Assembly: GCA_965249275.1 (NCBI GenBank) | Contig: CBDFLQ010000007.1 | Span: 480,001 to 544,000 of the forward strand | Length of the DNA: 64,000 nt | Reading direction: 5' to 3' | Origin: Dehalococcoidia bacterium | Lineage (GTDB): Bacteria; Chloroflexota; Dehalococcoidia; Plut-88900 | Shown: positions 29,101 through 29,900 of the stretch, in pieces | How the letters are laid out: each line of letters begins with the position of its first letter | Numbering within the stretch: the stretch's first letter is position 1 | Notes under the pieces: generated by a model | The model's database searches: none | The model's input: the letters and a program-made list of their open reading frames with translations, nothing else | What the model was told of the DNA's origin: nothing | Program-made: the position numbers and the translations under genes

Positions 29101-29122
29101 CCCTAAATGTGACACCAACCCC

Positions 29123-29152
29123 TTGACCCGGTACAAACATATGTACTATATT
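29123..29152 (+). promoter_or_regulatory. promoter with LexA/SOS-like box (locus 1)
   Basis: TTGACC-18 nt-TATATT with AAAC-ATAT-GTAC in the spacer; same geometry at 42225. Confidence 0.6.
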
Positions 29153-29157
29153 CACCC

Positions 29158-29900
29158 CCGACCGGCCAGTCACCATCCCAACCCCCAAAGGAGGACCCAA
29201 CACCCGGGGAACACCACCGGACTACCGAGGACTCAACGTCCCAGCCCATCCCGAGAACCGGCCCTCACGCCGACTACCGGCTCAAGCGAAAGCCGCCATC
29301 TCCTCTCCTAAAGGTTCCGGCTTACCCTTCCCCAACTCTGGCGATGGAAGACGCCTTGGATTCGTAAAACTGAAGACTCCACCACCTCTTACCAGGTGGT
29401 CGAGAGCAGGTCTCCTCTCTTGTGAGTGAGGAGGTCTGAAAAGACCCGACGCCACAGAGCGAAGCGGGCAGGGTGCTCATTAAGCTCTCACGGAGAGGGG
29501 CCGGACCGACGTTGAGGATCTTCTCGATGCCCCTCCCCGCCCTAGTCGTTTCCGCCGTTGCTCCCGGCTCCCGGACGCTTCGGCAATGTTGGACATATTA
29601 CTCCTGTGGGGCCTACAGCTGGACCCGGCCCCCTTAGGCTGTCTTGGCGTGTGGAACACCCGGTTCTGGAGGATGGTATATCCGCCTCTGAATAACAGCA
29701 CAGCCAACCCACGTGTAGGAGCCGTGCCGGACCGCTGGCCCCGGTCGAGTCCGTGCAGCAGTCGAGCGTATGGGGCAGCGGGCCTGTAGCGTCCTCACCC
29801 CTGGATGCCCGAACCCCCGCTGTATCGTTACAGGGGCGTCGTCCAAAGAGCGTCTTCCATCGCCAACCACCACAAATCAACCAAGAACGCACCCCCCACC
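29158..29900 (+). ncRNA. putative large structured ncRNA (cassette 1)
   Basis: leader homologous to 42260-42445; 16-bp perfect stem 29339-29354/29850-29865 enclosing many hairpins; no conserved ORF; boundaries approximate. Confidence 0.6.

Follow-up and report, generated by a model that had tools for sequence, protein, structure and literature searches.

A multicopy unit with a predicted structured RNA gene in a Dehalococcoidia genus, probably spread as a non-autonomous DNA transposon

What is the element that begins at position 29108 of a 64,000-nucleotide stretch of DNA from the Dehalococcoidia bacterium assembly GCA_965249275.1 (contig CBDFLQ010000007.1, positions 480,001 to 544,000; hereafter the window)? 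A first-pass annotation, made from the letters alone, described it as the first of two loci in which a constant promoter, leader and closing stem surround a variable structured RNA, and proposed a modular family that delivers different large RNAs. We have followed up this locus (locus 1) and its partner at 42210 (locus 2) in the window's own genome, G000 (2.9 Mb, seven contigs, 87% complete), and in eight relatives of the same genus, G001 to G008. The family is probably a large non-autonomous DNA transposon, similar in kind to the miniature inverted-repeat transposable elements (MITEs), that carries its own expressed, structured non-coding RNA (ncRNA) gene. We favour this reading because of the terminal inverted repeats (TIRs) of complete copies, the 5-bp duplications that flank them and a site that is filled in a relative and empty in G000. 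The two window loci themselves are probably immobile relics.

Architecture and extent of the family

As well as finding the named sequence features where the first-pass annotation had placed them, with 29108–29350 aligning to 42210–42457 (MAFFT) and the quoted motifs in invariant columns, our searches showed that a count of two loci was wrong. The leader gave 68 blastn matches in G000, where 54 units have both the leader and the inverted repeat, and nine further units belong to a second leader class described below. By our own estimate (54 copies of approximately 0.8 kb), the units make up about 1.5% of the genome. A covariance model (CM R1), trained on 30 diverse copies and covering the final 128 nt of the leader, matched 54 times in G000, including both window loci (C7:509226–509354 and C7:522331–522461), and at least 23–57 times in every other genome searched in the genus, eight in all; these counts are lower bounds, with 150 candidates scored in each genome. 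The same model had no match in three other genera of the family, nor in 146 genomes from 110 other genera of the class. Matching public contigs were metagenome-assembled genomes (MAGs) of uncultured Dehalococcoidia, together with one chance match in a Rhodococcus record. A phage or plasmid origin was considered and rejected, viral contigs having given no pattern match to the element and plasmids no blastn match.

The suggestion that the element belongs to no known family also survived. Rfam 15 produced no match at the gathering score across the window, and in E-value mode the two loci and 14 further units yielded scattered sub-threshold noise, outside or unrelated to the unit. A full-text literature search with the clamp sequence, and for ncRNAs or repeats of Dehalococcoidia, returned no related publication. 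What emerges is a real, non-coding, modular family, in which a constant promoter, leader, clamp and tail surround a variable and strongly folding interior.

The promoter block is kept at the 5′ border of all 54 copies. It is of the sigma-70 type, with GTGACAY 7 nt upstream of TTGAC(C/A), a spacer of 17–18 nt and a TACTAT/TATATT −10 box; a promoter scan gave 10 of 12 matches at locus 1, against a mean of 0.4 sites in shuffled sequence. The same architecture lies upstream of a tRNA gene in one relative. The RNA would start approximately 7 nt past the −10 box and run into a leader of about 190 nt (C 44%, G 20%) with invariant CCAUC motifs, in which AAGGAGGAA, CGAGGACUCAACG, GCCCAUCCCAA, a variable hairpin, GCGGCUCAAGCGAAAGCCGCC, the invariant CCAUCUCCUC and CCCUUCCC occur. 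The Shine–Dalgarno (SD)-like AAGGAGGAA can form seven consecutive pairs with the 3′ end of the G000 16S rRNA (..CACCTCCTTTCT; pairing by hand) and, as first reported, no start codon follows it. The invariant motifs and the clamp are retained in copies that differ at approximately 25% of the other leader positions.

The leader hairpin changes in sequence and keeps its pairing, for example as GGGCGGCC../..GCCGCCC, GGUCGCC/GGCGACC or GGCCC/GGGCC. A consensus fold of 132 copies contains the helices GGGAAG/CUUCCC, GACCC/GGGUC and GAGGA/UCCUC and leaves the SD-like motif single-stranded; three leader pairs in this alignment show two-sided changes (AU 61/GC 29, AU 58/GC 41 and CG 69/GC 25). Two other leader alignments paired differently, as AGGAG/CUCCU and as CCCAUCC with the 5′ clamp strand GGCGAUGG. 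Because these alternative alignments (MAFFT-based RNAalifold) gave incompatible pairings, we take the leader fold as tentative; the 5′ clamp strand may have decoy partners in the leader. Pairwise covariation in the leader, when scanned, mainly reflected subfamily structure.

Between leader and tail lies the helix that we call the clamp. At locus 1, GGCGATGGAAGACGC is exactly complementary to GCGTCTTCCATCGCC (coordinates in Table 1); the perfect stem described in the first-pass annotation includes T29339/A29865 as a sixteenth pair, and TTGGA/TCCAA do lengthen the helix, beyond a bulge, in the minimum free energy (MFE) fold. Locus 2 has the same 11-nt core (42447–42457 with 42830–42840) and a compensating inner GTCC/GGAC where locus 1 has ACGC/GCGT. 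Across 135 copies the clamp is a 15-bp helix whose positions 1–11 are nearly invariant and 89–100% canonical, whose positions 12–15 covary (GTCC/GGAC, ACGC/GCGT and others), and whose pairing ends at position 16, the outer flanks being unpaired. The extension is 70% paired, whereas shuffled partners reach 57% on average and 62% at most, and the clamp closes the MFE folds of both loci. It would join leader and tail and may be a recognition or processing platform, like the leader–trailer helices of rRNA precursors; the 'processing stem' first proposed is thus putative. The clamp halves were also considered as the ends of a nested transposon, a candidate rejected on finding no near-exact pair of halves enclosing 0.7–6 kb and no leader without a clamp.

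The interiors of the 54 units of G000 measure 288–520 nt, and the 143 unique copies from G000 and its relatives fall into approximately eight interior subfamilies (41, 28, 24, 13, 12, 9, 4 and 4 copies). Locus 1 belongs to cluster 6, with G000 C6:663421 and two copies in relatives, whilst locus 2 belongs to cluster 2, which has 13 copies in G000 and 24 counting relatives. Four subfamilies that carry the ACGC extension have a homologous 3′ domain, in which a compensating hairpin is followed by CAGCCAACCC..GGAGCC..CGGAC..GUCCG. The description of the interior as a variable payload holds in part: at 11 of 22 conserved sites the interior subfamily differs between species, as would be expected of exchangeable payloads, but the interiors are not free, being drawn from about eight subfamilies. 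Clamp and interior fold strongly at both loci, with an MFE of −240.3 kcal/mol for the 528 nt of locus 1 (z = −4.39) and −178.5 kcal/mol for the 397 nt of locus 2 (z = −7.37); none of 100 dinucleotide shuffles was as stable in either case. Substitution density was lower in predicted stems than in loops in six of six subfamilies, for example 0.097 compared with 0.212.

No reading frame is kept across copies, in agreement with the first-pass annotation. In locus 1 each of the three frames meets a stop within 90 nt of the clamp, every copy in clusters 3, 4, 6 and 7 is interrupted by stops in every frame, and members of one subfamily differ by indels of 1 nt and 22 nt. One stop-free frame crosses the interior in 13 of the 24 copies of the locus 2 subfamily. 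The second leader class, with nine members in G000, combines the promoter of the family with a different leader, in which AGGAG-N4-ATG occurs, and with the clamp AUGGAAGGUyCCCGGAC; its stop-free frames extend over 227–327 codons, and its large indels are multiples of three. Its substitutions are flat by codon position (903 : 1025 : 897), with no third-position excess, the two remaining frames are likewise long and open, and both strands are poor in stop triplets, for which reasons we read its open frames as an effect of composition and not of coding. One second-class copy holds 18-nt tandem repeats.

The conserved unit runs approximately 55–95 nt beyond the 3′ stem, where the earlier account had stopped, and ends in CCACAACTGAATAA at both loci. 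In 54 copies this tail is composed of 40.5% A, 40% C, 10% G and 9% T, and it closes as CCACAA, zero to three small CCGCCUnnGGnGG hairpin units and CUGAAKAA. No intrinsic terminator was found in locus 1. The Rho factor was not found in G000 and is present in five of five complete relatives, so we attribute its absence to the incompleteness of the assembly; with Rho in the genus, the G-poor tail is a plausible Rho-loading site, at which the transcript would end ahead of the host promoter. The small hairpin GGAACATCCGCCTnnGGnGGA, found in many units (for example at 29900–29948 of the window and in L048, L055, L056, L086 and L108), is present zero to three times in tails and also sits in a leader loop; it behaves like an independent mini-repeat.

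The sequencing data compared were Logan contigs of three RNA-library runs (two studies; 0.05–0.09 of sampled words) and of one other run, all matched at 88% likeness. In the RNA libraries, contigs that come from relatives extend over the element, and one of them (X19 record 18) spans 29440–29865 and 88 further letters. The summed word depth of the interior bin exceeds that of neighbouring gene bins; such depths cannot rank genes, and DNA may be present.

Terminal repeats, target sites and persistence between species

The ends of the element came to light when filled sites in relatives were compared with empty sites in G000. Among the 54 G000 copies, the left module TGATCCCGTTCACATAGAGGGGTGACAT is present in 16, the right module GTGTCACTAATCTACCGAACGAGTACA in 24 and both in 16. 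Complete copies measure 739–902 bp in G000 and 699–1195 bp in relatives. The modules are imperfect terminal inverted repeats of 27–28 bp with TG...CA tips, sharing 17 identical positions, an agreement equalled by three of 2000 shuffles. Perfect 5-nt direct repeats lie exactly at the ends of 10 of the 16 complete G000 copies (CAGGG, GCGGA, CACCG, GCATT, CAGGT, CCCCC, GGGGC, CTCCC, GCGGA and TCAGC), and repeats of at least 4 nt at 13 of 16, where random pairing of flanks gave a mean of 1.65 and a maximum of 7. Two of these copies (on contig C4 and at C7:585604) have identical flanks and may be one locus assembled twice. The 16 complete copies of relatives behave alike, with a perfect 5-bp duplication in 8 and at least four of five positions in 14 (control mean 0.73, maximum 4); several are orthologous to G000 copies, and at least L040, L077 and L098(−) are at other sites. 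In the one clean filled/empty pair inspected in detail, CCGCC flanks the element on each side at locus L090 of a relative, whereas the G000 site is empty and contains CCGCC once. Of 21 left ends in G000, 17 have a right end 739–1199 bp away and the other four have none within 20 kb.

The position of insertion is unusually regular. Of 33 right ends, 28 are followed by T at +6, 23 by T at +7, 25 by G at +8, 22 by A at +9 and 22 by C at +10; TTG is complete in 17 and TTGAC in 10, and these TTGAC-like bases place complete copies 5 bp upstream of a host −35 box. A hexamer of the TAnnnT type usually stands 16–18 nt further on, followed by a gene or tRNA (read by eye, unscored). Of the 25 right-end motifs in G000, 24 follow an element. 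The internal promoter of complete copies always faces the downstream gene or tRNA. Over all 54 copies, with heuristic open reading frame (ORF) calls, the first downstream gene is co-directional in 41 (binomial probability approximately 1e-4 under 50:50, our own calculation) and the upstream gene is divergent in 34 of 50. In a sample of 20 of the 41 co-directional ORFs, 19 had Pfam domains of mixed function, including LeuRS, Glu/Gln-tRNA synthetase, an ArgC-type dehydrogenase, RibF, an aminotransferase, a sulfate permease and four Amidohydro_2 proteins.

Comparison between species shows both persistence and turnover. Of 55 elements of relatives with usable flanks, 33 map to one site each in G000; an element occupies 22 of these sites in G000, with the interior subfamily unchanged at 11 and different at 11, and the remaining 11 sites are without a class-1 element. 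At the locus 1 site itself, G005 has an orthologue, G004 an element with a different interior, and G001 the promoter followed by unrelated C-rich sequence. In G002 and G003 the same promoter precedes a second-class leader, another closing helix (CCAGCGCTCCCTCTCGGCC/GGCCGCAGAGGGAGCGCTGG), which encloses tandem repeats of about 95 nt (GCGGATGCCCGCG..CGCGGATGATTTCCCGC), and a tail ending in CCACAACTGAATA. Identity between the G000 and G005 orthologues is 0.80 in the promoter, 0.83 in the leader, 0.887 in the interior (with a 51-nt gap) and 0.57 in the tail, and the clamp strands are identical at 16/16 and 15/16 positions. The neighbouring gene is 0.988, 0.995 and 0.876 identical at its three codon positions. 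Because the interior value lies so close to that of third codon positions, we conclude that, the clamp and a few motifs apart, the unit drifts at approximately the silent-site rate.

A copy of a 1,056-bp insertion sequence (IS) lies beside each window locus, at a distance of approximately 55 nt. Its 320-aa transposase is of the DDE type (Pfam rve/rve_3), and its tips are TGTA...TACA; TG..CA tips with short duplications are typical of rve-family transposases. The left end of the IS agrees with the right end of the element at 19 positions, an agreement equalled by one of 2000 shuffles; three other comparisons of IS and element ends were not significant, two of which used a wrongly placed right end of the IS. 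The two window copies are 96% identical at their starts, and copy 1, flanked by GGAAT and ATTCC, has no duplication. The IS protein has 13 matches in G000, 25 in G002, nine in G003, five in G008 and one broken copy in G001. The IS transposase is a candidate relative of the enzyme that may move the element.

Two further observations concern rve transposases. A second rve IS, coding for 375 aa and with ends TGTATAG...GTCGTACA, lies beside elements in three genomes. The promoter motif was considered as an end of this IS and rejected: the IS has its own TGTATAG...GTCGTACA ends (L151), and a block of repetitive extragenic palindrome (REP) and promoter precedes a tRNA gene. At G000 C7:246000–252500 (L150), two inverted elements (arms approximately 1147–1767 and 4574–5236) enclose a 2.8-kb segment with a 376-aa rve transposase ORF and a 317-aa ORF, which could be a composite arrangement or coincidental insertions.

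Feature coordinates and neighbouring repeats

Table 1. Coordinates of the two window loci, the neighbouring insertion sequences and the second-class units. Positions are those of the window unless a contig or locus is named; the transcription start site (TSS) is predicted.
Feature	Position	Strand	Remarks
Locus 1 promoter region	29109..29152	+	GTGACAC palindrome-like motif; −35 TTGACC 29123-29128; 18-nt spacer; −10 TATATT 29147-29152
Locus 1 leader	29159..29339	+	putative TSS ~29159; alignments and CM R1 match
Locus 1 SD-like AAGGAGGA	29188-29195	+
Locus 1 leader motif CGAGGACTCAACGTCC	29226-29241	+
Locus 1 leader motif GCCCATCCC	29244-29252	+	variable hairpin next
Locus 1 leader motif CCGCCATCTCCTC	29293-29305	+
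Locus 1 leader motif ACCCTTCCCC	29324-29333	+
Locus 1 clamp, 5′ strand	29340..29354	+	core GGCGATGGAAG plus ACGC; pairs with 29850-29864
Locus 1 interior	29355..29849	+	495 nt; cluster 6, four members including the G005 orthologue
Locus 1 clamp, 3′ strand	29850..29864	+	GCGT plus CTTCCATCGCC
Locus 1 tail	29865..29958	+	C/A-rich, G-poor; hairpin units (CCGCCTTTGG..); ends CTGAATAA 29951-29958; no right-end module after
IS copy 1 (1,056 bp)	30012..31067	+	TGTAAG...TCTACA ends; transposase ORF 30076-31038, 320 aa; not part of the element
IS copy 2 (1,056 bp)	41098..42153	+	ATTCC repeats 41093-41097 and 42154-42158
Locus 2 promoter region	42210..42254	+	TGTGACAC..; −35 TTGACC 42225-42230; −10 region to 42254; scan 9/12
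Locus 2 leader	42260..42446	+	alignment and CM R1 match
Locus 2 clamp and interior	42447..42840	+	clamp 42447-42461 with 42826-42840; 364-nt interior
Locus 2 tail	42841..42896	+	C/A-rich; ends CTGAATAA 42889-42896
Second-class units, G000	C7:453328, C5:156945, C5:477200, C6:141648, C6:946485
Second-class units, G000	C5:272107, C5:735588, C6:841640, C5:169173	-
Unit at locus 1 site, G002	L036 ~1340-2000
Unit at locus 1 site, G003	L037 ~540-1330

Several short repeats accompany the element. A REP-like hairpin, CCCTCTCCCTCGATGGGAGAGGGCTAGGGTGAGGGTGA, occurs in the window at 32723–32760, 29060–29098, 43140–43240 and many more places, often just upstream of the element promoter; it is common to many organisms, as judged from an enormous contig depth (bin 32476–33009) in every sequencing run compared. 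A second REP-like family, ATTCCGAGGCTCCGCGAGGAATCTGGGGCGGGG, has five to seven window copies (29017–29059, 31068–31110, 40890–40932, 42154–42196 and 43096–43138), and the IS copies are inserted in or beside these repeats. A short intergenic repeat, CAATCAAA..CGTGCCTGA, is often paired (L117 at about 240–260, L120, and L038 at about 1700–1760).

The rRNA genes of G000 are single-copy and unlinked (16S at C7:727339–728936; 23S at C5:432499–435634, with a tRNA after it), and each has a leader–trailer helix containing AACTGAATAG. Homology between the element and rRNA leaders was considered and rejected, the 16S and 23S flanks giving no blastn match to any element; the words AACTGAATA and TGGAAGG, common to the rRNA flanks and the element, are probably chance. 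A retroelement reading was likewise rejected on the absence of any RVT_1 match in G000 (87% complete). The single RtcB copy of G000 is uninformative.

Interpretation and comparison with known systems

How well does a MITE-like transposon with its own RNA gene account for these data? In outline, the unit would have been spread in trans by a DDE transposase (rve-type, IS481/IS3-like); 38 of the 54 copies, both window loci included, would then have lost one or both terminal repeats and become fixed relics; and interiors would have been swapped by recombination between the conserved flanks, with about two-thirds of mappable sites keeping the element between species. Several results weigh against this account. 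There is no sign of an autonomous version, with no pair of ends 1.2–20 kb apart in G000 at its 87% completeness, and the IS protein had no match at E ≤ 1e-20 in G004, G006 and G007 and 30%-identical relatives only in G005, though all of these genomes hold many elements. Neither end module is present at loci 1 and 2, which means that the demonstration of mobility covers the family but not these two copies, and copies without TIRs gave no clean junctions when compared with empty sites. A size of 0.74–1.2 kb and an internal promoter are unusual for MITEs. The strict gene-facing orientation could reflect selection rather than targeting.

Other difficulties concern the RNA. Its transcription rests on prediction from the conserved promoter, and the RNA-library contigs that cover the element are those of relatives. 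The covariation of stems that the first-pass annotation proposed as a check was clear in the four inner clamp pairs and a few leader helices, but did not exceed controls in the interiors. In the alignment A3, made up of 15 copies from a single subfamily, 98.9% of cells pair, and among 80 pairs 57 are constant and one changes on both sides; its covariation score was 0.060, compared with 0.056 for shuffles, of which 39 of 500 scored as high. When single-copy MFE folds were laid on other copies, 31–55% of changed pairs stayed canonical, which is the range of slid controls. The predicted interior structure is thus supported by thermodynamics and stem conservation, not by covariation. The interior, moreover, changes about as fast as third codon positions, with the leader and tail identities lower still. 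Lastly, old and diverged copies keep their motifs and clamp, which selfish decay does not predict and which points to function of each copy or to gene conversion.

This retention is one of the attractions of a rather unlikely alternative, that the units are host ncRNA genes: some 50 stable-RNA-type promoters would yield an abundant precursor, whose clamp is cut or bound by a factor to free or stabilize a trans-acting RNA of 0.3–0.5 kb, and the subset with TIRs would be a secondary capture. The preserved motifs in leaders that differ by a quarter elsewhere, the 22 of 33 mappable sites still occupied across species, the promoter architecture in common with a tRNA gene of a relative, the predicted unpaired state of an SD-like motif complementary to 16S rRNA, the compensatory leader helices, the very stable folds and the RNA-library contigs of relatives that span interior, 3′ clamp strand and tail (X19 record 18) would all suit such genes. 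However, the terminal repeats and 5-bp duplications in 16 of 54 copies, together with the filled/empty pair, indicate that the whole unit transposed; orthologues diverge almost neutrally, interior covariation does not exceed controls, 11 of 33 sites are empty in G000, and the family is found in one genus only among those searched. Transposition and an RNA with its own function would be combined if the unit were a mobile RNA gene cassette, an idea that we hold to be unlikely: a stable-RNA-type promoter and a clamp-closed, exchangeable RNA domain would home, in one orientation, to sites 5 bp upstream of −35 boxes. Such an RNA might help to choose or mark promoter targets; a dedicated factor might process or circularize it at the 11-bp duplex; or its exposed AAGGAGGAA and CCUCC-type motifs might let it titrate ribosomes or SD sequences.

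It is more doubtful still that the element is a cis-acting, promoter-proximal module, whose right end takes the place of the sequence before the host −35 box, which supplies a strong tandem promoter of its own, and whose transcript, read into the gene as a long structured 5′ leader or stopped in the tail, tunes or insulates the gene. The 5-bp spacing between right end and TTGAC box that most complete copies show, the bias towards co-directional downstream (41/54) and divergent upstream (34/50) genes, a tail with 10% G in a genus with Rho and the lack of an intrinsic terminator in locus 1 speak in its favour, but 13 of 54 copies point away from the gene that follows, the right module is missing from 30 of 54, downstream genes have no common function, and loss or gain of the element is tolerated at orthologous sites. 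That the unit encodes a protein or peptide, whether a long arginine/proline-rich frame or a small ORF from the ATG within GGCGATGGAAG or after the SD-like motif, we regard as highly improbable. The second-class units with AGGAG-N4-ATG, their frames of 227–327 codons and their indels in threes, and the open frame in 13 of 24 copies of the locus 2 subfamily, are what a coding unit might display, but the flat substitution profile and both-strand stop depletion, the stops in every frame of locus 1, clusters 3, 4, 6 and 7 without an open frame and the lack of a start codon after AAGGAGGAA all tell against it.

A MITE-like transposon is also the closest kind among known systems, and it is the copies with terminal repeats and 5-bp duplications that displace the earlier idea of a dedicated delivery system. 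Correia/NEMIS elements of Neisseria and ERIC are MITEs of approximately 0.1–0.15 kb, non-coding and multicopy, with TIRs and short target duplications, found near promoters and transcribed; Correia hairpins are RNase III substrates, Correia elements can supply promoters, and MITEs are usually smaller than about 0.6 kb. Our element resembles them in being non-coding and intergenic near promoters and in having subfamilies, TIRs, target duplications and repeats that pair in RNA. It differs in being five to eight times larger, outside the usual MITE size; in having a full internal promoter, a predicted transcript of 0.65–0.8 kb and a 15-bp clamp separate from the TIRs; in its insertion 5 bp upstream of −35 boxes in one orientation; and in that most copies have lost the TIRs yet retain the RNA features. 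The kind of element is therefore known; what is new here is how large it is, that it contains a transcription unit, that its invariant clamp is separate from its ends, and that it inserts close to −35 boxes in one orientation. Insertion sequences of the IS481/IS3 type, such as the 1,056-bp IS near both loci, have the same TG...CA termini and 5-bp duplication, and one end of this IS aligns with the right end of the element at 19 positions, but our element has no transposase gene and no internal similarity to the IS, which is absent or distant in four element-rich genomes.

The first-pass annotation had found the stem reminiscent of rRNA processing stems or retron arms whilst matching neither; the negative half of that statement stands. 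As in rRNA precursors, the flanks of a structured RNA pair into a long helix behind a long conserved leader, but there is no homology to rRNA leaders, and the outer 11 bp are invariant in sequence across approximately 135 copies, beyond what pairing needs. The retron msr-msd has a1/a2-like inverted repeats around a structured non-coding region downstream of a promoter, whereas G000 (87% complete) has no RVT_1, interiors here measure 288–520 nt and copies number 54 per genome. Multicopy structured RNAs linked to transposons, such as HEARO (the IscB/IsrB omega RNA), and large bacterial ncRNAs (OLE, GOLLD, ROOL and raiA) resemble our element in that it too is a large, structured, multicopy ncRNA linked to mobile DNA, but our element has no match in Rfam, which also models group II introns and ribozymes, and no adjacent nuclease or transposase ORF, and its ends are of the cut-and-paste type (TIR and duplication), not IS200/605.

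For the genus, these units account for many long 'empty' intergenic regions, and they should be masked or modelled with CM R1, since they would otherwise be mistaken for genes. If they are transcribed as predicted, few RNAs of these uncultured Dehalococcoidia would be more abundant than theirs, and the persistence of an invariant 11-bp duplex and CCAUC motifs in copies without transposon ends suggests a sequence-specific factor still to be found. Should the mobile cassette idea prove true, the family would represent a new class of transposons that home to promoters and carry an RNA, and possibly a new class of large ncRNA as well. The promoters concerned include those of tRNA, aminoacyl-tRNA synthetase and amino-acid biosynthesis genes, and such an unusual transposon, whether it homes to promoters or survives nowhere else, may rewire gene expression across the whole genus.

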